From positions 512,001 through 576,000 of the forward strand of contig CAWHDP010000002.1 of assembly GCA_963828125.1 (NCBI GenBank): DNA of 64,000 nt. The letters are read 5' to 3'. Within the stretch, counting starts at the first letter, position 1. Each line of letters starts with the position of its first letter. The translations under genes were made by a program, and so were the position numbers. The stretch is from an uncultured Chlamydiae bacterium. Its GTDB lineage: Bacteria > Chlamydiota > Chlamydiia > Chlamydiales > SM23-39. The notes below the pieces were generated by a model. That model worked only from the letters and a program-made list of their open reading frames with translations. It did not search any database and was not told where the DNA came from. Positions 16,756 to 64,000 of this stretch are shown piece after piece.

Positions 16756-16782
16756 TTAGCAATCCTGACAATATTGTGCTAA
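16756..16782 (+). promoter_or_regulatory. CIRCE-like HrcA operator upstream of groES
   Basis: TTAGCAATC-N9-TTGTGCTAA versus consensus TTAGCACTC-N9-GAGTGCTAA, directly upstream of the groES promoter. Confidence 0.85.
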
Positions 16783-16788
16783 ATTGTG

Positions 16789-16817
16789 TTGCAAAAAATC
16801 GGATCATCCGCTATATT
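16789..16817 (+). promoter_or_regulatory. Sigma70-type promoter of groESL
   Basis: -35 TTGCAA (16789-16794), 17-nt spacer, -10 TATATT (16812-16817). Confidence 0.75.
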
Positions 16818-16863
16818 CCTTCTTAGATTCAAGAATGCGTTTATCATATAGGAGAAACTACTT

Positions 16864-18795
<1,932 letters not shown>

Positions 18796-18814
<19 letters not shown>

Positions 18815-51748: not shown

Positions 51749-51979
51749 ACGACCGTCGGTTCCCAGAGCTTTAACACAGTCCAAATTCCAAGGTTTTGGC
51801 CGGTTACTGTATCCTTGGCGTTGTTTAGATGGATCACTCATGCGAGGAGTATGATAACGGGTGCGAACCATTCTCTGCTATGTATTAAAAAATTGACAAC
51901 AAAATCCTAGAAGTGATCAGTTTCTGATTGCCAAAAGAGGAAAGATTACGTTAAACTTTTATTCTACCATGCCACGCGT

Positions 51980-52053
<74 letters not shown>

Positions 52054-52240
52054 AACTTTTAAAGGCGTGATTTACAAAGCTTTATGTGTCCTATCAGAGT
52101 GTACCCAAACAGCGATTGTCGCTGGCGCGACACACTCCAGACACAGTAAGGCCCTATCACCCACAGCACTCCACAACAAAAGCCTTTCGGCGATTGCCAT
52201 CGTTGCTCACTTTTTAACCCTTAAAAGTGAAGATTAAAAC

Positions 52241-53314
52241 ATGGCAAGCATCAAAAAACGCAAGACCTCAAAAGGAATCAGCTACCAAGCTCAAATCCGA
52301 AACAACGACGGACACCCTCCCCAATCCAAGAACTTCCCAACCATGCAAGAAGCTAAAGATTGGGTAAGGGACGAAGAAGCCCGCCGCCGCCAAGAAACCT
52401 ACTTCCCCGAACAAGCCAAAAAGAAACGCACGCTCACTGAACTCATTGATCTTTATATCGAAGAAATCCTCCCCTCCAAGCCAAAAAATGCAAAAGACAC
52501 AAAACGCCATCTCGCCTGGTGGAAAGGTGAAATCGGCAAGTATGCCCTCAATCTCATTTCCTATGATCTGATTGATAAATGCCGAAAGAACCTGATCCAA
52601 GGAACCACCACTAAAGGCACTCAGCGCAATCCTGCCACGGTCAACCGATATATGGCTGCTCTCTCTGTCGTCTTTACCTATGGATTCAAGCAACGAGGCT
52701 GGCTTAAAGAAAATCCTCTCCTCCGCTTTAGCAAACTTAGAGAATCAAGAGGACGTGATCGTATCCCCACTCCTGAGGAATGCGACCGACTCTTTGCCGC
52801 CTGTAAACAAAGTCGCAACAAACATCTATACAACATTGTCATCCTGGCCCTGACTACAGGGGCGCGACTAGGTGAAATCTTGGGGCTGACATGGGACTGT
52901 GTTGATTTACAGCACAATTGCCTTCATCTTAAAGAGACAAAAAATAGCCGTCCTCGCTCCGTTCCCCTCACTGATTCAATGGCGCAGTTTTTTCAACAGC
53001 TTCAATTTACTAGATTGCCTAATCAACAGTTCGTATTTCCAGGGCGAAAACCTTTTCAAAAAACTTCCATTCGAAAAGCATGGGATGGGGCCCGTAATCG
53101 TGCAGGAATCACCAACCTGCGCTTTCATGATTCTCGTCACTTCTTTTCCACAGTCGCAGCTCAAGTCGCCATGAATACAACCCAGTTAGCCGTTGCGACT
53201 GGGCATAAATCCATGCAAATGTTGCTCCGCTATACGCACCAGGACGCAAACCATACACGCACTCTCACCGAAAGCGTTCACAACAAACTGCTTCAAACAG
53301 GAACTAAATCATGA
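52241..53314 (+). CDS. Tyrosine recombinase / phage-type integrase
   Basis: Catalytic set R (TGARLGE), K (ETKN), HxxR (HDSRH), H (TGH), Y (LRYTH); arm-binding-like N-terminus. Confidence 0.96.
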   Translation: MASIKKRKTSKGISYQAQIRNNDGHPPQSKNFPTMQEAKDWVRDEEARRRQETYFPEQAKKKRTLTELIDLYIEEILPSKPKNAKDTKRHLAWWKGEIGKYALNLISYDLIDKCRKNLIQGTTTKGTQRNPATVNRYMAALSVVFTYGFKQRGWLKENPLLRFSKLRESRGRDRIPTPEECDRLFAACKQSRNKHLYNIVILALTTGARLGEILGLTWDCVDLQHNCLHLKETKNSRPRSVPLTDSMAQFFQQLQFTRLPNQQFVFPGRKPFQKTSIRKAWDGARNRAGITNLRFHDSRHFFSTVAAQVAMNTTQLAVATGHKSMQMLLRYTHQDANHTRTLTESVHNKLLQTGTKS

Positions 53315-54589: not shown

Positions 54590-54817
54590 ATGAACCAACA
54601 TTTCCCGATAGAAAACAAAATTTCACCAGAACTACCGCAATATTGCACAGTACACCAGATCGTCAGTGATCGGTCCTTCTGTTTTACCGAATCGATGCTT
54701 CGATACTATATCCTTCATGCGCATAAAAATGGATTCAAAAAAGTAGTCAGACGTATTGGCCGAAAAGTGGTTTTGCGGCGAGATTTACTCATATCCTGGC
54801 TAGAAGAGCATTCGGCT
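54590..54817 (+). pseudogene. Excisionase/AlpA-like DNA-binding protein interrupted by IS21 (native last codons at 57206-57220)
   Basis: AGGAG RBS; winged-helix-like SMLRYYI...VRRIGRKVVL...WLE; removing the IS restores an 80-aa ORF ending HSAKRGL*. Confidence 0.75.
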
Positions 54818-55042
54818 TGTCAAGCGACACCAGAAAGTGACCCACCGGCGACATTGAAAAGTGACCCACCCCCAATCTTTTCTTTAATGACTACGGCTGC
54901 CTAACGACAGCCATATTGGTGCTTTAGCGGTAGTCAGAGGATATGCAAAGCTCTGAGTTGGTGCTGAGGCACAATACTTCTCTTCCACCGAAGGAGAGAG
55001 GAGGCCCCCTCCCCCATGGGGGAGGGGCGAAAACTAAATTTT

Positions 55043-55834
55043 TTACTTCCCTTCTAGAGTCTCCGATTGAAGGACTGTTGTTTTAACCAATCCAGATTTT
55101 CGTTTTTCTTTCAGCCGATAACTTTCTCCGCGAATAGTGACTACATGGCTGTGATGCAAGAGGCGATCTAAAATTGCTGTTGCAACTACAGTATCGCCAA
55201 AAACTTCCCCCCATTCGCTGACTGAACGATTACTCGTAATTAAGGTACTTCCTTTCTCGTATCGTCGGGAGATCAACTGAAAAAATAAATGAGCCGCTTT
55301 CGGATCAAAGGGAAGATATCCAAGTTCATCGATAATCAGCAATTTGGGTTTCGAATACCAAACAATCTTGTCTTCAAGACGACCTTCTTGGTGAGCCCGA
55401 GCGAGCTGGGTCAAAAGAGTGGTCGCCGGAGTAAAAAGAACTGTGTATCCTAACCGAATGGCTTCATTGCCAAGCGCAACAGCTAAATGAGTTTTCCCAA
55501 CTCCAGGAGGGCCTAATAACAGAAGAGCATCTCCATTGGCAATCCAACGACAAGTTCCAAGTTCGCGTATTTGACCGGCATCCAATGATGGCTGCGCACT
55601 AAAATCAAACTGTTCAAGAGTTCTTGCATAGGGGAATTTAGCCATCGAGAATCCACGGCGATTACGGGTGTGTTCTCTCTGCTGCATTTCTTGTTCGCAA
55701 AAAAAAGCTAGAGCTTCTCGTAAATTCATTTTCTTACGAGATGCTTCATCGAGAAGGTTGTCGAGTTTGTCTCGGATAGTTGAGAGTTTCAATCGGTGGA
55801 GTGTAGCTACAAGATTTTCATGATTGATGGTCAT
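55043..55834 (-). CDS. istB: IS21 helper ATPase IstB
   Basis: GPPGVGKTHLA, LIIDELGY, ITSN, AILDRLLHH, GESYR; ATG overlaps the istA stop. Confidence 0.97.
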   Translation of the reverse strand: MTINHENLVATLHRLKLSTIRDKLDNLLDEASRKKMNLREALAFFCEQEMQQREHTRNRRGFSMAKFPYARTLEQFDFSAQPSLDAGQIRELGTCRWIANGDALLLLGPPGVGKTHLAVALGNEAIRLGYTVLFTPATTLLTQLARAHQEGRLEDKIVWYSKPKLLIIDELGYLPFDPKAAHLFFQLISRRYEKGSTLITSNRSVSEWGEVFGDTVVATAILDRLLHHSHVVTIRGESYRLKEKRKSGLVKTTVLQSETLEGK

Positions 55835-57123
55835 TACCAACCTCCTCCGGTAATAGCTTCATACTCGGTAAGAGGACGAAGCAGCTCGGCAGGTTTGATT
55901 GGAGCATTTGGAACTTCCATTTTCATGCACCAATTAGCCCCTACGATTCCCTTTAAATGATGAGGATTGATGGAGCGTTGCCTCTCTCCTATGCAGACAG
56001 GGTGACGGGCTATTTCGTCAGCATCATAGAGGATTTTGACTTCAGTTTCGGTTAATTGTACTGTGACCTCTTTTTTAATGAAGTGCCATGGCACACTGTA
56101 AAAATTTGTATCCACCTCCACACAAGCATCCGTATGGACCGATCTTTGCATCTCTCTTCCCAAATAGAAAGGTGGCTTCCCATTTAGCGGTTGAAGAACA
56201 GCTTTTTCTTCTTTCTCAAAGCGATCGATTGGTTTTTCTCCAGTAGTCCCATGGATTCTGAGGTCTGAAATATCTCTCATCCACCAAACGATATGTTCGC
56301 CAAGAGCCTCCCAGCTTGAGAACTCCCTTCCGGCAATTCCATTATACTTAAAATATTTGACCGTGTTTTCGTCCTTCCCCTTCGTTCTTGCTCTATAAGG
56401 GGCGCATGCTTTGGGCTTGAATTTCCAATAGTTAGCAAACGCATGTAGGCGTTCATTGAACACCACTTCTCGTGTCTGCGGGTTGTGACTGATAACAAGT
56501 GGCTTTGGATTGTCCATTAAGACTTCTGATGGGATCCCTCCAAAATGGTTAAAGGCTCCTTCAAGCCCCTCAAACCAGGCCGATTGTCGTTCATGGATAA
56601 AGGCCTGTATATATTGGCGGCGTGAAAAACCAAGAACTGCCGCGAAAAAATAGATCTTCTTCGGCTCTCCTGCAATCTTGATAGTAATCGATCCAAAGTC
56701 AATTTGCATCTGCTTGCCCGGCGGCGTCTCAAACCGAATCGTCGCCTTTGCTGAAGCAAAGGCCCTTTGTCTAAATAGTTTAACTGCTCTTTCGACAGTG
56801 CGTAGATCAGCTTGCAGATTGTGTTGACGAACCAACTCTTGGCGGATAACCTCTGCATTACCTTTATGGAGGTTAAACATTTCTTCGAGCCAGACATCTA
56901 ATGCTTCCAGCCTCTTAATTCTTTTGGGAATATTATACGGGCGCCATTTCCCTTGTCGCCGGTAGTGTTTAACGGTATTGGCACTAATTCCAAGCTCTTT
57001 GGCAATCCGTCTTTTACCCCACCCTTCTGATGACAAATATAAAATTTTCTCTACGACATTAGGTGGTTCCATTCTCTCTTTACTGTCTCCTGTTACAACA
57101 GCAGAGATTTTATTGGGTTCCAT
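55834..57123 (-). CDS. istA: IS21 transposase IstA
   Basis: N-terminal HTH; RFETPPGKQMQIDFG, LMDN, TKGKDE DDE residues; RIHGTT; start uncertain. Confidence 0.96.
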   Translation of the reverse strand: MEPNKISAVVTGDSKERMEPPNVVEKILYLSSEGWGKRRIAKELGISANTVKHYRRQGKWRPYNIPKRIKRLEALDVWLEEMFNLHKGNAEVIRQELVRQHNLQADLRTVERAVKLFRQRAFASAKATIRFETPPGKQMQIDFGSITIKIAGEPKKIYFFAAVLGFSRRQYIQAFIHERQSAWFEGLEGAFNHFGGIPSEVLMDNPKPLVISHNPQTREVVFNERLHAFANYWKFKPKACAPYRARTKGKDENTVKYFKYNGIAGREFSSWEALGEHIVWWMRDISDLRIHGTTGEKPIDRFEKEEKAVLQPLNGKPPFYLGREMQRSVHTDACVEVDTNFYSVPWHFIKKEVTVQLTETEVKILYDADEIARHPVCIGERQRSINPHHLKGIVGANWCMKMEVPNAPIKPAELLRPLTEYEAITGGGW

Positions 57124-57219
57124 GCTTACTCTCACTTCAAATAGGGGGGTGGGTCACTTTTCAATGTCGAAAGGGGGTCATTTTACACTGTCGCCTGACA
57201 CGGCTAAAAGAGGTCTGTA

Positions 57220-57529: not shown

Positions 57530-57730
57530 ATGAATGAGCCTCTTGGAAAGATCCTAAGAGCAAAAAGAACGGAATCTGAGCTTTCTCAGGAAAAATTGGC
57601 AGATTTGGCTGGATTGCATTTCACTTATGTGAGTTCGGTTGAGCGAGGCGAGCGAAATATCTCTCTGGAAAATATAGGACGACTAGCAAAGGCGCTGAAT
57701 TGTCGTATCAAGGACTTATTTGTCGAGTAA
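57530..57730 (+). CDS. XRE family HTH regulator resembling restriction-modification controller (C) proteins
   Basis: LSQEKLADLAGLHFTYVSSVERGERNISLENI. Confidence 0.92.
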   Translation: MNEPLGKILRAKRTESELSQEKLADLAGLHFTYVSSVERGERNISLENIGRLAKALNCRIKDLFVE

Positions 57731-58068
57731 GTAAAAACTTAATTCATACAATTAAAAAGAAAAATTAAGTCAATTTCTAGCGACCAAAGATTATTAAAAA
57801 TAGGGATTTTAAAAGTTTTTCAACAAAAGCCCCCAACTTCCTTTGTCTTCCTGATTTTGTTAATGGAATCCCTATCTCTCTTGAAATACGAGCTTTAAAG
57901 GCTGAAATTCCCAGGAATCGTCTCCACGAAAAGCCGCCGCGATTCATCTACTTTTACCTTGTATAAATACAAACAATTTAATTTAAAAATACACCTCTTA
58001 TTTTAGCTTTATTTAGCAACTTCATTCAAGTATAATTCGATCGAATTAATAAATTAAAAGGAGTAGTT

Positions 58069-60546
58069 TTGTCTACTATTGAGATTGGGATTGATTTAGG
58101 AACTACTAATTCTTCCGTAGCCGTCATTCAACAAAGCGATGTGTATATTCTTAAAAATGCATTAGGAGAAGAGAGCACGCCTTCTGTTGTTTATGCTGAT
58201 AGGAACGGAAATATTGTAGTCGGATCGAAAGCAAAACGAGTAATGAATAATTCAAAAGAAAACCTGCAGAATAGCAAGGCTGAAATTAAACGCCTTATGG
58301 GGACTGCAGAAACCATTTCATTTCCAAATCTCAATAAGAAAATGCTGCCTGAAGAAATTTCCGCAGAAATCCTCAAGACTCTTAAAAGCGATGTCCAAAG
58401 AAAGTATCCCGAGATATCACTGAATGCTGCTGTGATTACTGTGCCTGCTTATTTTTCTACTGTGCAGTCCGAGGCAACGAAGCGAGCAGGAAGCTTGGCC
58501 GGTTTTAAGCAAATCGTGCTTCTCCAAGAGCCTATTGCTGCTGCAATTGCTTATGGATTTCTCAATCAAAAAAATGAAAATTGGCTGGTATACGACCTCG
58601 GAGGAGGCACTTTTGATGTTGCCCTCGTTGCCTCACGGGACGGATTTCTTACGGTTCTAGCCCATGCGGGAGATAATTTTTTAGGAGGCAAAGACTTTGA
58701 TGCCGCCATCATCCAGAATTTGATCATTCCTTCTCTTTCTGCTAAGGCCATAGTTCTCGATCCAATAACCCATTCCCAAGTCTTTAGCTATTTGAAAGAG
58801 CTCGCAGAGTCTGCAAAAATCGAGCTTACTGTCAGCGATAAAACAACCATCGACATCGATATCCAAGTAAATCAACTGCAGGTCCAACATTCCCTCGAGA
58901 TATCAAAAGAAGATCTCCTGGAGAGCTGCAGGCACCTGCTCAACAAAACAGTCGATCTCTGTAAGAAAACAATCAGCGATGCGAAAGTCGATCCTGCAAC
59001 AGTTCAAAAGATCGTCCTTGTCGGCGGTCCGACTCAGATGCCTATCCTGCAAGCCTTTTTGAAGGAGACGCTGCACATCAAAGTGGATGGATGTCTGGAC
59101 CCTATCACTGTTGTTGCAAAAGGCGCTGCTATGTTCGGCAATCAAACAAGGATCACTGAACAGAAAGAGAGTGTCAGCACATCAATCGCCGCCTGTGAGC
59201 TAGAAGTGAATTACAATCCAGTTACATCAGATGATGATCAAACAGTCACTGGGAAGGTCTTGCGCTACGCCGAAGCCGTGCAGCCCTATTCAGTGCAATT
59301 TGTGAGTTCTGATGACTCCTTTGCTTCTGAAGAGATTTTAATAAAAAACGGCAAGTTCATACTGACGCTTCCTACAGGGAAAAAGGGCACGCAGTACTGG
59401 ATCTATATTAAAGACAGCAGTGAAAAGTTGATTGCATCCGCGCCAGAAAGCATCCACATCAATCGAGGCGTTTCCATTATGGGAGCCCCTCTCCCCTATT
59501 CAATCGGAGTGTCTGTGATCACGCTGTCCTCTAACAAAGGTTATGCGGAAGCGACAGAGACGATGGAATTTTTCTTCTCTAAAAACAGCATTCTTCCTCT
59601 CAAGGAGAGAAAACGCTTTCATACCGTAGCCGACCTTAAAGCCGGATCATCCGAGAATGGCCTTCCTATTTGCATCTATGAAGGGGAATCTCTGATTACA
59701 AATCGGAACACCTTGGTGTGCCATCTGGCGATTATGGGCAAAGCGATAGCTAAAGACCTGAAGAGAGGCTCTCCTGTCGATATTACAATCGAGATCAATG
59801 AGTCCAGAGAACTCACGGTGATGGCTTATCTCCCTGATTCCGATATTACCCTTAATGCAAGAGAAACTCTCTACTTCGATGCAGCAAAAATCGACGAAGT
59901 AAAAAAGGACTTTACAGAGCAGGTGTCAAGGTCTGAATCCGTAATCGATTCCGAAGAGCCCTCGAATGAAGCGAACGTCATCAAAAATATGATTAAAGAT
60001 ATCCAATCCACCATCGACCATTCGGGAGCTGACTCAGATCAGCAGAGAAAGGCTGAAAAGCAAGTGAAGGATCTAATGATGGCATTGGACCAAATGGAAG
60101 CAAAAACAAAATATAACGGGAATGTCTCTTCATTCTGGAAAGAGTGCCAGGAGCTTTCTGATTATCTGGAAGATTGCAACCCGCCGGAAAAACGAGCGGA
60201 ATATGAAGCTGCCTATAATACCCTGCGCAAAGAGGGCCTCTCTGCCATCGCCAAGCAGGATGCAGTATGGATCGGGCATATTGTCCAGAAGTTGAACCAG
60301 CTGCATTTCAAATGCCAATTCTCTGACACCCGCTTCCTTGCTCCCTGGATTCAGGAACTGATAAAGCTGGCTGAGGAAAAAGCGCATGCCCATCCATCTC
60401 TGTCCGGCCTGATCAGCAGAGCCCAGGACGCTCTGGCTAAATCCGATGTGAAGGAAATGCAGGAAGTCATCCACGCTCTTTATCCATTTACAGGAGAAGA
60501 GGGAAAGCCTCAGGTCAAGTTTGTAAAGTCGGGAATTATGCTATGA
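58069..60546 (+). CDS. Atypical Hsp70-family protein (825 aa), not the housekeeping DnaK
   Basis: [46 protein letters not shown]-like PYSIGV...IYEGE; AAGGAG RBS before TTG; TATAAT at 58031-58036. Confidence 0.95.
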
Positions 60547-62408
60547 CCGCCCAACTGCCGCAAATACTGATCAGGAATTCATTCAATATCCTCGGCCTTT
60601 CTTCCTCATCAGCATTGAAAGAAATAAGAAAAAAATCCCAGCAGCTGCTTCAGTTCGCAAAAATTGAAGAAGTTCAAGAGTTCGATACGGACATCGGCCA
60701 TGTAAGGGAATTCCGGAATGAAGGCGAAATCCGCCAGGCGCTGGAAAGAGTTTCCAGCATCCAAGAACGCTTGCAGGAGATTTTCTTCTGGTTCGACGAC
60801 CACAGCATAGAAAGCCGGAAAGCCGTCGCCCTGATATCCAAGGAAGACTACAGAGGTGCTCTTGAGATTTTCGATAAAGCAGACAAGGCAAATGCCGATT
60901 GGCTTGGATGTAAAAATTTAGCCCTGACGTTGATGTTTCACGCTTTTGCCACCTCCAGCCTCGACAGCTTCTGTCGTTCATTGAATTTTTGGAAGCTCAT
61001 TGCGGAATCAGATGATTTTTGGAAATTCTATGAAAAGCACTATCTTTTGCATGACGAATTGGGAACTTCATCCTCTTTATTCCAGGAGTTCAGAAGCTCT
61101 ATCTGCGAAATTCTTTCAGCGAAAGCAGTTTCTTTCTACCACCAAACAAAGAATCCAGAAGCTATAGGCGCCTGCTATTCCTCATTTGGACGAATTGGAA
61201 AAATCATAGACGTTGAGATCCTTCAACCGATCATTTTGAAGGTAAAAAAAGAAATAGAAGAACTAGAGAATATAGACACCAAATTAGAGCTGGATACAGC
61301 TTCGATCAGGAGAGTCCTTAAAAAAATTCACAAATTCTTCTCTGATCTGGATAAATTTGAACTTTCTGAATACAGCCCTCTGACTCTTCTTAAAAACGAT
61401 ACTGCGGAGAAACTGAGGTCCATATCGGTCGATATCTACAATCAAAATGCCGATTCCGAAATTGCGCGCCTCTTCCTCGAACAAGGCTCCAAGCTTGCAG
61501 TGTCGGAAGCAATTGCGGACAAAATCAAGGCCGACAAAAGACAGCTCCAGGAAAACGAAACATGGCAGTCGGTTTCCGGCAAGTTTGAAAAGGTTAAAAC
61601 CTTGATCGCGGATCAGAGCCTAGAAGAGGCTAAAAGCGCCTATCTGAGCCTAGATAATGAGCTGGCTGGACAATCCGATGAATCTTCAGTAGGAAGCCGC
61701 ACCCAGCTGCTGATCAACTATTGCTCGCTGCTGATGGAGAAGGGGCATGAGCTCTTTGGAAAAAAGAAATTTGGCATTGGAATGCTTGCAATTTCCGGCC
61801 TCTTGAATAGGAAAAGCCACAAAAACGCAATTCTTGCCTTCGAGCATGCTTCAGAAATACTGAAAGACCGGATGCATCTGTTTGATTTTATCGACCCTGC
61901 TGCAAATAGAGCCTCGCTTTCAAAAAACATGGACACCATATCCGGCAATCTAACGAAGTGCGAATTAGCATCCTTGTTCGATCATCATCAGTCTTATCTG
62001 CAGACAGTAGAAGAGATAGCGCATGAGCAACGCAATGAAAACACTCAGATTGCAATAAAACTTCTGGGAGCAGCGGTCTGCTTTAGTATTTTATATCGGA
62101 GATTCTATGGCGTCACACAGAGAAAAATGTGGAAATGGATAGGATGGGGAGCGGCGATCGCATTCTATTTTTTTGTGATCATGGGTAACGACAAACCTGA
62201 GCCAAAAACGTCTTACAAAAGCAGTAGCTATCAATCCAAGCCTTCTTATTCCGCTTCATCCCCATCTTTGAGTTACGAGGAAAAAGAGATCATTGAATAT
62301 CTGCAGATAAATGAACCTGAAATCTTAAAAAACATTAGAAAAGAGGGCTACTCTGATAAACAGATAGCCCGGTATCTAATAGAACACGCTGACGACGAGG
62401 AAGAATGA
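60543..62408 (+). CDS. Helical protein with N-terminal J-domain-like region lacking HPD and a C-proximal TM helix
   Basis: NSFNILGL...KEIRKK J-like helices; TPR-like helical body; WIGWGAAIAFYFFVIMG TM; ATGA overlaps on both sides. Confidence 0.8.
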   Translation: MTAQLPQILIRNSFNILGLSSSSALKEIRKKSQQLLQFAKIEEVQEFDTDIGHVREFRNEGEIRQALERVSSIQERLQEIFFWFDDHSIESRKAVALISKEDYRGALEIFDKADKANADWLGCKNLALTLMFHAFATSSLDSFCRSLNFWKLIAESDDFWKFYEKHYLLHDELGTSSSLFQEFRSSICEILSAKAVSFYHQTKNPEAIGACYSSFGRIGKIIDVEILQPIILKVKKEIEELENIDTKLELDTASIRRVLKKIHKFFSDLDKFELSEYSPLTLLKNDTAEKLRSISVDIYNQNADSEIARLFLEQGSKLAVSEAIADKIKADKRQLQENETWQSVSGKFEKVKTLIADQSLEEAKSAYLSLDNELAGQSDESSVGSRTQLLINYCSLLMEKGHELFGKKKFGIGMLAISGLLNRKSHKNAILAFEHASEILKDRMHLFDFIDPAANRASLSKNMDTISGNLTKCELASLFDHHQSYLQTVEEIAHEQRNENTQIAIKLLGAAVCFSILYRRFYGVTQRKMWKWIGWGAAIAFYFFVIMGNDKPEPKTSYKSSSYQSKPSYSASSPSLSYEEKEIIEYLQINEPEILKNIRKEGYSDKQIARYLIEHADDEEE

Positions 62409-63478
62409 TAAATTTTGACAAACCCTCATTTCCTCCCGGATGGATTCTCCCAGGGGGAGCCAAGATCCTCAAAAGAGTCGACAAACAGCAGTTTGTCGAG
62501 GTATTCAGCCTTGATTCCGGCGAATACCTGTATTTATTTCATGAAGAAGAAATTGTAAAAAGACTGAAAAATCGTGACATTTCTCATGAGATATTATTTG
62601 CGAGCGGAATGCAGGTTGCCGGTAAGAGATATCCCGATCATAAAGATGGGGACATACCCGAGAGGTTGAAAAATCTGATTCAAAGAAAAGGTTTGGATGC
62701 CATTGCTGGAATGTCAACGCTTAAAAATACACTGATCAGAGACGTGATTCAGCCATTTCTGAACTGGGAAGCATATGAAAAATACGGAGTCACTCCTTCC
62801 AACGGCATTCTTTTTTTCGGACCGCCGGGTTGCGGCAAGACATTCATAGCAAAGAAGCTGGCAGAGGCTATGAGAGCCGAACTTATTGAGATGAGCGAAG
62901 GAACCGTAGGCAGTCCCTACATTCACGCAACATCAAATAACATCGTGCAAGCCTTCAGAAAGGCTGAGCAAATAGCTCCATGCGTTCTTTTTGTAGATGA
63001 AATCTCGGGATTAATGCCTAGAAGAGACAGCTTGTCCTCTTCCGAACAATATCGGGAAGCCGAGATCAGCGAATTTTTAATGCACATGGAAGGCAGCGTA
63101 AAGAAGAAGGTCTTGGTTATCGGAGCAACTAATTTTCCAGAAAGAATCGATCCGGCGATTCTACGTTCTGGACGAATGGATAAAAGGATCTTCATTCCAC
63201 CTCCGGATATAGAAGCGCGATGCGAGCTTTTCCACCTGCTGTTAGAAGAAAGACCGATTAGCAACGACATCGATTTTGATACACTTGCGAAGATCACTGA
63301 AGGGTTAATTTCCTCTGATCTGAAGTTAATTGCCAATAACGCCGCCTTGAAGGCATTGCAGGAAAACGCCTTAATATCTATGGCATTATTGGTAGAAGAG
63401 ACTTCCCGATTTAAACCCTCGTTAAGCCAAGCTGATTTGGATCGATATCTCGCATTCGAAGCCTATCGCAGAGATTGA
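62405..63478 (+). CDS. Classic-clade AAA+ ATPase (CDC48/FtsH-like, single module)
   Basis: Walker A GPPGCGKT; Walker B LFVDE; SRH GATNFPERIDPAILRSGRMD; pore loop SPYIH. Confidence 0.95.
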   Translation: MINFDKPSFPPGWILPGGAKILKRVDKQQFVEVFSLDSGEYLYLFHEEEIVKRLKNRDISHEILFASGMQVAGKRYPDHKDGDIPERLKNLIQRKGLDAIAGMSTLKNTLIRDVIQPFLNWEAYEKYGVTPSNGILFFGPPGCGKTFIAKKLAEAMRAELIEMSEGTVGSPYIHATSNNIVQAFRKAEQIAPCVLFVDEISGLMPRRDSLSSSEQYREAEISEFLMHMEGSVKKKVLVIGATNFPERIDPAILRSGRMDKRIFIPPPDIEARCELFHLLLEERPISNDIDFDTLAKITEGLISSDLKLIANNAALKALQENALISMALLVEETSRFKPSLSQADLDRYLAFEAYRRD

Positions 63479-63615: not shown

Positions 63616-64000
63616 ATGAGACCCAAAACTTGCTTTCTTGCCCTTAGCCCCCTTCTCAAAAATTCCTCGTTTACATCGAAGGAAGCTCGAGCCCTTGGAG
63701 TATCCTCGGAAGTTCTTGCCCATTACGTCAAAACAGGAAAACTGAAAAGAATCAGCCGAGGTCTCTATCGAAAAGCTGGCCATGAAGAACTTTCCCCCAC
63801 TCAATGGAATGACCTAGTAGAGGCCATTTCCATTATCCCTGGTGGAGTCGTCTGCCTCATATCAGCGCTAGCTCTTTACGATCTGACAGAAGAACTACCT
63901 CGCCAGCATTGGATTGGCATTCGGCACGGGACTTCATCTAGAAGCACCCGCCAGATTAAAATCGTCCGTTTCCGCAATCTGGAACTAGGCAAAACCGAGA
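63616..64000 (+). CDS. abiEi: Type IV TA antitoxin, AbiEi family (partial, runs off the window; not in the ORF track)
   Basis: My translation: MRPKT...EARALGVS..VLAHYVKTGKLKRISRGLYR (winged HTH), then GVVCLISALALYDLTEELP. Confidence 0.88.
   Translation, partial: MRPKTCFLALSPLLKNSSFTSKEARALGVSSEVLAHYVKTGKLKRISRGLYRKAGHEELSPTQWNDLVEAISIIPGGVVCLISALALYDLTEELPRQHWIGIRHGTSSRSTRQIKIVRFRNLELGKTE

Follow-up and report, generated by a model that had tools for sequence, protein, structure and literature searches.

A mobile operon encoding a long Hsp70, a membrane-anchored adaptor with a degenerate J domain and a AAA+ ATPase, with exchange of the adaptor 3´ half between near-identical copies

We analyzed a 64,000-nucleotide stretch of DNA from an uncultured Chlamydiae bacterium (positions 512,001 to 576,000 of contig CAWHDP010000002.1, assembly GCA_963828125.1; hereafter the window), which carries a three-gene operon on an integrative element. 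The genes encode a long Hsp70, a membrane-anchored adaptor that begins with a degenerate J domain and a AAA+ ATPase. The new result of the present analysis is that, as judged from allele comparisons, the last ~1 kb of the adaptor gene is swapped between near-identical operons. We tentatively interpret the operon, with confidence that stops just short of an even call, as a private, membrane-tethered capture-and-unfold machine of integrative elements that would be aimed at a changing target outside the operon, the likeliest being a protein of a phage or rival element at the inner membrane face. The three open reading frames (ORFs), all on the + strand and all intact, occupy 58069-60546, 60543-62408 and 62405-63478 (825, 621 and 357 aa). 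ATGA overlaps join the Hsp70 and adaptor genes at 60543-46 and the adaptor and AAA genes at 62405-08, confirming the co-oriented, coupled trio described in an earlier sequence-only reading of this DNA.

Among the chlamydial-type copies of the operon, mean identity was 0.79 for the Hsp70, 0.80 for the AAA protein and 0.78 for the J domain of the adaptor, but only 0.39 for adaptor residues 346-520. This variable helical region (61578..62102, + strand) was swapped among close copies together with the remaining 3´ end of the gene. Between loci L096 and L097, DNA identity fell from 0.90-0.97 across the Hsp70 gene and the 5´ part of the adaptor gene to 0.49-0.65 over the next ~1 kb and then returned to 0.85-0.95; no comparable drop was observed between L097 and L098. 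We compared 60 close adaptor pairs (at least 85% alike in residues 5-235; drawn from 45 proteins and thus not independent of one another), and 29 were less than 55% alike in residues 346-520, with a bimodal distribution. The same drop was seen in none of 19 Hsp70 and none of 66 AAA controls. Finally, a five-row clade found on residues 5-335 (support 99) was rejected on residues 346-520 by the approximately unbiased (AU) test (p = 1.2e-11), for which 24 of the 45 rows were used and the group was picked after both first trees had been seen. These comparisons indicate that the divergence of residues 346-520 reflects exchange and not just speed. Because the Hsp70 remains 98% and the AAA protein 95% identical across the swap, the exchanged module does not have to fit either partner and most likely has its counterpart outside the operon. 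Because the last ~1 kb of the gene is what changes between near-identical operons, the 3´ part of the adaptor probably sets the target. We also noted that the AAA gene of L095 is further from that of the window than its adaptor gene is (synonymous divergence, dS, saturated versus 0.59), which hints at a second exchange.

The mobile setting of the operon, likewise proposed by the sequence-only reading, was borne out. The 3´ end of a tRNA-Met gene (51979-52054) forms the left attachment (att) repeat (52008..52053, + strand), and a second, 100% identical copy of these 46 bp lies beyond the window at G000:C2:587084-587129, giving an element of about 23 kb. Less exact copies occur further on, at 593357 and 605008; the operon is therefore cargo of the first of several tandem elements. 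A tyrosine integrase (52241..53314, + strand; Pfam Phage_integrase 7.3e-30, Int_N) belongs to the operon-bearing element, and the GC content drops past the tRNA from about 0.51 to 0.38-0.48. Insertion sites vary: 8 of the 24 cassette loci have a tRNA-Met, -Pro, -Gln, -Trp, -Ser or -Asn gene nearby.

The adaptor (60543..62408, + strand; 621 aa, all helical) matched no Pfam, NCBIfam or PADLOC family, although its own family is large (375 representatives with E values of 1e-10 or lower). Alignment of its N-terminus (residues 5-90; 60555..60812, + strand) with 48 J domains by HHalign gave 92.9% (E 3.8e-7), compared to 0.34% or less for five control windows. This is true J-domain homology, as expected from the J-like partner lacking the His-Pro-Asp (HPD) motif that had been proposed. 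The HPD is replaced by xP[E/S/D]Y in the family and by VQEF here, while D50 and R58 are near-invariant; among 116 adaptor N-termini, proline occupies the HPD position in 88 and the complete HPD was found in two. The J-domain part of the single-chain model was of low confidence. A conserved, tetratricopeptide repeat (TPR)-like helical core follows (residues 91-345; 60813..61577, + strand), for which fold searches returned generic helical repeats only (best Z 9.8, root-mean-square deviation (rmsd) 6.6 over 228). Beyond the variable region, hydropathy predicts a transmembrane helix after a basic stretch (residues 529-547; 62127..62183, + strand). The helix is only moderately hydrophobic (Kyte-Doolittle (KD) value 1.40); within the last 40% of the protein, a segment with a KD of at least 1.6 is present in 81 of 116 relatives. 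The positive-inside rule suggests an N-in orientation, which would place the Ser-rich linker and small helical tail (62187..62405, + strand) outside the inner membrane. Some relatives differ at this end: two Bacteroidota-type copies, at L134:10202-11905 and L135:9812-11569, finish in a CFI-box-CTERM domain, not a plain membrane helix. A small membrane protein lies between adaptor and AAA at L126:6008-6592 and L128:3971-4453, and its C-terminus looks similar, on visual inspection, to the outer tail that the L110 adaptor carries as a fusion (L110:8001-9872), a possible fission.

The Hsp70 (58069..60546, + strand; 825 aa) matched Pfam HSP70 at 9.3e-84 and scored under all DnaK and HscA cut-offs, including 283 bits against the DnaK equivalog profile (cut-off 648). 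It departs from the DnaK plan of ~640 aa with a DVLLLD linker right after the nucleotide-binding domain (NBD) in that a ~95-aa domain is inserted in between. The NBD (residues 1-360; 58069..59148, + strand) keeps its catalytic residues, and the ATPase site is intact, with D9, K74, E154, D176 and T181 invariant in 28 rows (assigned through DnaK numbering). Next come the inserted all-beta domain, absent from DnaK (residues ~372-466; 59182..59466, + strand), a linker-like strand with the substrate-binding beta-sandwich (residues ~467-600; 59467..59868, + strand) in which loops L1,2 and L3,4 are lengthened, and, in the structure model, an extended helical lid and C-terminal bundle (residues 601-825; 59869..60543, + strand). 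From the alignment, the peptide pocket appears hydrophobic as in DnaK, with longer loops. The model (predicted local distance difference test (pLDDT) 81) resembles ATP-state Hsp70s (for 6eob, rmsd 4.0 over 631 columns and a template modelling (TM) score, normalized to target length, of 0.79). In a quickly built tree of NBDs, 24 long Hsp70s formed one clade (support 99), separate from DnaK and HscC, in which the chlamydial-type group was sister to the Patescibacteria-type group (support 97). The Hsp70 of the closest relative (L095:7002-9306) is broken into two frames.

The two proteins appear to have lost the standard Hsp70-J contact together. DnaK R167 is described as binding the HPD aspartate and clamping with D481 (PMC8215388). 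Residues R151, R167 and D481 are replaced throughout the present Hsp70 family: arginine at the R167 position (V150 here) occurs in none of the 46 family rows that could be parsed (out of 47) versus 55 of 55 DnaKs, and D481 has become an invariant serine (S579 here). The rarity of HPD among the adaptors is thus matched by co-loss of R167. We modelled the complex of Hsp70 residues 1-610 with adaptor residues 1-345, as the sequence-only reading had suggested, and an interface was predicted with a score of 0.62, versus 0.00 for the best of three controls. Among solved complexes 116 of 157 attain the mark used, compared to 2 of 215 mismatched pairs; these figures hold only roughly here because our own alignments were used. 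Contact agreement among runs was at least 93% and partner pLDDT at least 84. The 25 lowest-error residue pairs all link adaptor residues 30-43 (J helix II) to Hsp70 residues 379-431 in the inserted domain, and the adaptor core is also part of the predicted interface. The model supports a private docking mode, in which the inserted domain would take the place of the HPD-R167 contact.

The third gene (62405..63478, + strand) encodes a single-domain, classical AAA+ ATPase of 357 aa with Walker A at residues 139-146, Walker B at 195-199 and the second region of homology (SRH) at 241-257. It has an aromatic pore loop (SPYIH) and arginine fingers, and its scores fall short of the cut-offs for Cdc48 and IetA. 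Fusion of the operon AAA to a kinase domain was seen in six Bacteroidota-type loci, and the catalytic loop of that domain is non-canonical in five. The 95-aa N-terminal domain of the present AAA could conceivably be the remnant of a kinase N-lobe: HHalign gave a weak match in the expected register (1.75%, score 19.4; 1 of 100 column shuffles scored higher), a shallower alignment gave 1% in a different register, and the Atlas gave no usable match for a kinase origin.

Both the conserved order and the patchy distribution that the sequence-only reading had named as things to look for were found. Matches occurred in 10 of 400 genomes of the same phylum (7 with the whole gene, this genome included; one more unscored), in none of 7 other genomes of the genus and in 1 of 68 of the family. 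With a wider profile, for which the genome counts are floors because few candidates were scored, we detected 4 of 401 genomes around a Gracilibacteria genome and 8 of 351 around a Muribaculaceae genome (center genomes counted), but none of the 351 sampled around Paenibacillus and none of the 351 around a gammaproteobacterium. When whole genomes were scanned with the Hsp70 alignment, DnaK dominated the results (long-form Hsp70s in 7 of 80 loci). All 11 chlamydial-type loci in which the adaptor gene is complete showed the order Hsp70-adaptor-AAA (the window, L095-L100, L104-L106 and L108; left out were L107 as a duplicate, L101 and L111 because contig ends cut them, and G120 and G277, which hold only fragments). 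In Patescibacteria-type loci the order was GrpE-like-Hsp70-adaptor-(membrane gene)-AAA in 4 of 4 with a downstream view (L004, L110, L126 and L128; L127 is cut and L109 a duplicate). In Bacteroidota-type loci it was adaptor-GrpE-like-Hsp70 in 7 of 7, followed by kinase-AAA in 6 (L131 is cut). Named close homologs were mostly chlamydial, in line with a chlamydial host. Several loci showed further variations. Lone adaptor fragments with neither Hsp70 nor AAA, which look like decayed copies, occur at L102:8959-9201, directly after an AbiE-like pair, and at L103:9887-10174. A DUF6804 membrane gene ends the operon in Bacteroidota- and Patescibacteria-type loci (L132:14226-14525, L126:7689-8003). 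The Muribaculaceae locus L009:5543-18124 is an extended operon with two adaptor paralogs, GrpE-like, Hsp70 and kinase-AAA genes, two genes read as TerB-like, another AAA gene and TY-Chap1-like genes.

Wherever the position could be viewed in the other two types, a GrpE-like gene adjoins the Hsp70 gene (5 of 5 Patescibacteria-type loci, 7 of 7 Bacteroidota-type loci). These genes are true GrpE homologs (HHalign 95.4%; Pfam GrpE 9.2e-9 for L126). None was found here or in the six other chlamydial-type loci with an upstream view, and the GrpE-like profile gave one weak match in this genome (E 0.085). The absence of grpE stressed by the sequence-only reading therefore stands for this Hsp70 and is a property of the chlamydial-type branch only; because relatives in other phyla carry the private gene, the window holds a reduced form. 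More distant long Hsp70s (L005, L008, L112) keep the GrpE-like gene and lack the AAA. The IIB loop has 23 residues in four of five GrpE-less copies (one unparsed), 25 in the DnaK of this genome and 26-29 in six of seven GrpE-bearing rows (one unparsed), a difference that is one event on the tree and so is not independent evidence. The operon is not the housekeeping dnaK locus, as had been stated: hrcA-grpE-dnaK lies at C2:836893-840429 (hrcA and grpE named by sequence and position), and no CIRCE or GrpE-like gene was found in the upstream region (57730..58068, + strand).

PADLOC-DB 2.0.0 (a library from 2023) assigned no core gene to a named defence system, in line with the failure of the sequence-only reading to recognize one; it gave no match for the Hsp70 or adaptor, and the AAA matched IetA only as a general relative. 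Literature searches turned up no description of this Hsp70-adaptor-AAA gene set, although it could figure in compilations of predicted defence families. As far as searched, the operon is undescribed and belongs to no named family tested. It may work like a specialized Hsp70-J-AAA machine. As in HscC-DjlB/C, a specialized, sporadic Hsp70 is encoded alongside its own membrane-anchored J protein; HscC shares the lengthened L1,2 loop and, with the chlamydial-type branch, the lack of a private GrpE, and DjlB/C share the N-terminal J domain and C-terminal membrane anchor (predicted from hydropathy in the adaptor). The gene set nevertheless differs from HscC-DjlB/C, as had been claimed. HscC has 556 aa versus 825, lacks the ~95-aa inserted beta-domain, keeps the R167 equivalent and is 33% identical over the NBD only; it falls outside the clade of 24 family rows (support 99), in a quick tree where it sits on a long branch. 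DjlB/C keep HPE and are not homologous partners by the searches made (hmmsearch E 0.25-0.31; HHalign 0.06%, with only two template sequences), and the hscC locus has no AAA gene. DnaK-DnaJ-GrpE with ClpB offers an Hsp70, a J protein, a AAA+ motor and, as in other branches here, a GrpE-type exchange factor. The present set differs from it in the Hsp70 score and missing HPD given above, in a AAA that is one classical-clade domain and not Clp as in ClpB, and in being mobile, rare and without CIRCE; the host dnaK locus is separate. GAP1-N2 GTPase systems, in which Hsp70, GrpE and FNIII-DnaJ have been proposed to act in conflict (Kaur et al. 2020, PMC7159879), also have a private Hsp70/GrpE/J set; here there is a AAA+ protein, and no GTPase or FNIII protein was seen in the operon Pfam scan or the loci read, with no GAP1-N2 profile run. 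CoCoNuT type III has an Hsp70-like protein, CnuD, in a predicted defence operon (PMC11090510), whereas the present operon lacks the McrB GTPase, HEPN and helicase and has an intact ATPase site. IetAS has a related classical AAA+ ATPase (PADLOC 5.9e-32), but the present AAA reached 103 bits against a cut-off of 510 and has no S8 protease partner beside it.

In the capture-and-unfold interpretation, the degenerate J domain and helical core of the adaptor would dock on the long Hsp70 through its inserted beta-domain, as predicted by the complex model; because this would replace the HPD-R167 contact, the pair would be orthogonal to host DnaK/DnaJ. Allele exchange suggests that the 3´ half of the adaptor selects the target, the conserved residues suggest that ATP hydrolysis by Hsp70 clamps it in the beta-sandwich, and family knowledge suggests that the AAA+ ring then threads the target and extracts or unfolds it. 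Nucleotide exchange would be served by the private GrpE-like protein in other branches, while the chlamydial-type branch would have lost it and use intrinsic exchange or host GrpE. A defence function is plausible, if still short of probable. We regard it as possible, and put it forward with more reserve, that this is the first immune system built on its own Hsp70, combining an anchored receptor, an exchangeable recognition half, an inserted docking domain, a AAA+ unfoldase for captured phage or rival-element proteins and recombination of a ~1-kb tract that would change specificity. If the operon protects against phage, it would represent a new class of immunity acting on proteins by mechanical unfolding, with parts that are known in kind. 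An Hsp70-J pair without the near-universal HPD-R167 contact, and maybe with a new docking domain, would also bear on how HPD-less J proteins function, and natural alleles of the exchangeable adaptor half offer a direct test of target specificity. Bacterial DnaK derivatives have been termed largely unexplored "dark matter" in a 2026 review (PMC13580251), and the present family provides a testable model for one of them.

The neighborhood provides suggestive evidence only for a defence role. We scanned 181 of the 192 ORFs within 6 kb of the 24 loci, along with 3 further neighbors and 8 cassette genes. Named defence systems lay within about 6 kb of 8 of the 24 loci: AbiE in L001, L096, L097 and L098, a vWA-PP2C-kinase triad (TerY-P-like, without PADLOC match) in L100, McrBC in L004, a type III restriction-modification (RM) system in L127 and a type I RM system in L132. 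PADLOC candidate genes were found in four more, L110, L126, L129 and L133. Several points weigh against the capture-and-unfold interpretation or its defence role. The neighbor count stands without a matched control of other cargo on such elements; AbiE pairs make up four of the eight named neighbors, three of them on related elements. An AbiE pair does follow the present operon, as had been noted, but is weak evidence because AbiEii relatives occur at five places in this genome. The viewed stretches of L135 and L009 contain neither defence nor mobility genes. None of the three genes encodes a toxic effector (nuclease, NADase or pore), and a four-helix membrane gene that follows in L096, L097, L098 and L105 is absent here. 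Because the swapped stretch also takes in the transmembrane helix and the tail beyond it, the site that determines specificity could be extracellular. Positive selection was not supported: dS was mostly saturated and the ratio of nonsynonymous to synonymous divergence (dN/dS) was below 1 in every region, including the variable one (pooled 0.48, from only 4 unsaturated pairs). The pass of the complex model may partly reflect likeness to the solved DnaK-J domain complex (5nro), and phage pressure on what appears to be an intracellular chlamydial host is uncertain. The wider proposal of a membrane-anchored protein-surveillance machine is supported in part, by co-occurrence, patchy spread, mobility and the predicted interface; an anti-phage role is an inference.

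Among the alternatives, a specialized envelope quality-control or stress machine like HscC-DjlB/C, folding or clearing host membrane proteins (e.g. under metal stress), is the one we take most seriously, though we consider it unlikely. The layout is that of DjlB/C, the operon is followed in Bacteroidota-type loci by TerB-like genes and DUF6804 membrane genes, the L135 and L009 copies sit among housekeeping genes, and sporadic membrane-linked Hsp70s have a precedent in HscC, tied to Cd2+ resistance (PMC8215388). The variable adaptor half would then suit different host clients; exchange of the 3´ half between operons that are 93-97% identical in DNA better fits a changing outside target, and both the lack of an upstream CIRCE and the absence from the seven other genomes of the genus speak against this alternative. 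Host DnaK remodels lambda and plasmid initiators, and the operon could similarly be a service module that remodels the replication, packaging or transfer complexes of its element, or excludes rival elements. Primase-like, terminase and coupling-protein neighbors (L098, L105, L110, L004, L128) are consistent with this, but element backbones vary by locus while the trio is constant; the adaptor had no match in viral contigs, and the Hsp70 C-terminal half matched 0 of 50,697 phage and 1 of 72,556 plasmid records. We regard a service role as improbable.

A guard or signalling switch is slightly more improbable still. Here the Hsp70 would hold the adaptor or AAA off until a phage protein or protease releases it, with abortive death through the AAA or the membrane part. 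Replacement of the DnaK allosteric residues and the kinase-fused AAA with its mostly non-canonical catalytic loop would suit such a switch, and there are reported precedents in DnaK guarding DancE (10.64898/2026.10.06.757031) and DnaJ in bNACHT25 sensing (PMC12169576). The retained catalytic residues and hydrophobic pocket argue against it, and the private GrpE-like factor of other branches implies a full cycle. That the operon is a decaying or neutral passenger without present function is very improbable: the Hsp70 of L095 is broken and G120 and G277 hold only adaptor fragments, but the three frames here are intact and pooled dN/dS was 0.05 for Hsp70, 0.04 for AAA and 0.19 for the adaptor (3-5 unsaturated pairs).

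The region upstream of the operon (70% AT) has a TATAAT at 58031-36, and the Hsp70 start codon, TTG, is preceded by an AAGGAG ribosome site. A promoter ahead of the Hsp70 gene is plausible from these features; the AT-rich region claimed in the sequence-only reading is thus present, but a consensus scan called no promoter upstream of the Hsp70 gene (8 sites versus 9.2 in shuffles, i.e. chance level), and a terminator scan was also at chance level. Contigs from four DNA runs match parts of the operon, indicating presence only. Downstream lies AbiEi (63616..64000, + strand), which continues into an AbiEii gene past the window (PADLOC 4.8e-86 and 1.7e-74) and is a neighbor, not a constant part; profile matches upheld this assignment along with those of the Hsp70 and AAA. 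Upstream, IS21-family istA/istB genes (55043..57135, - strand; Pfam IstB_IS21 1.6e-85, rve) are an insertion in the element, outside the operon. Contig depth over this copy (54816-57200) was several-fold above its flanks in two runs, which fits a multi-copy element.

We also observed that at least three elements are apparently arranged in tandem at tRNA-Met (G000:C2:564008-605054, from window position 52008), with an integrase-like ORF near each att copy (587084, 593357 and 605008). These elements carry large Rhs/YD-like ORFs and a second AbiE pair (labels from reading), as well as ORFs that resemble, by eye, broken type I-E cas genes. Elsewhere, at L098:3202-6884 and L105:6219-9801, the trio is carried by small elements that also encode a large terminase and a methylase and may be phage satellites. 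Finally, a CIRCE-like inverted repeat lies ahead of groEL in the window (16757-18814), and this groEL is broken into two frames (17163-18146 and 18143-18814), reflecting a frameshift or an assembly error.

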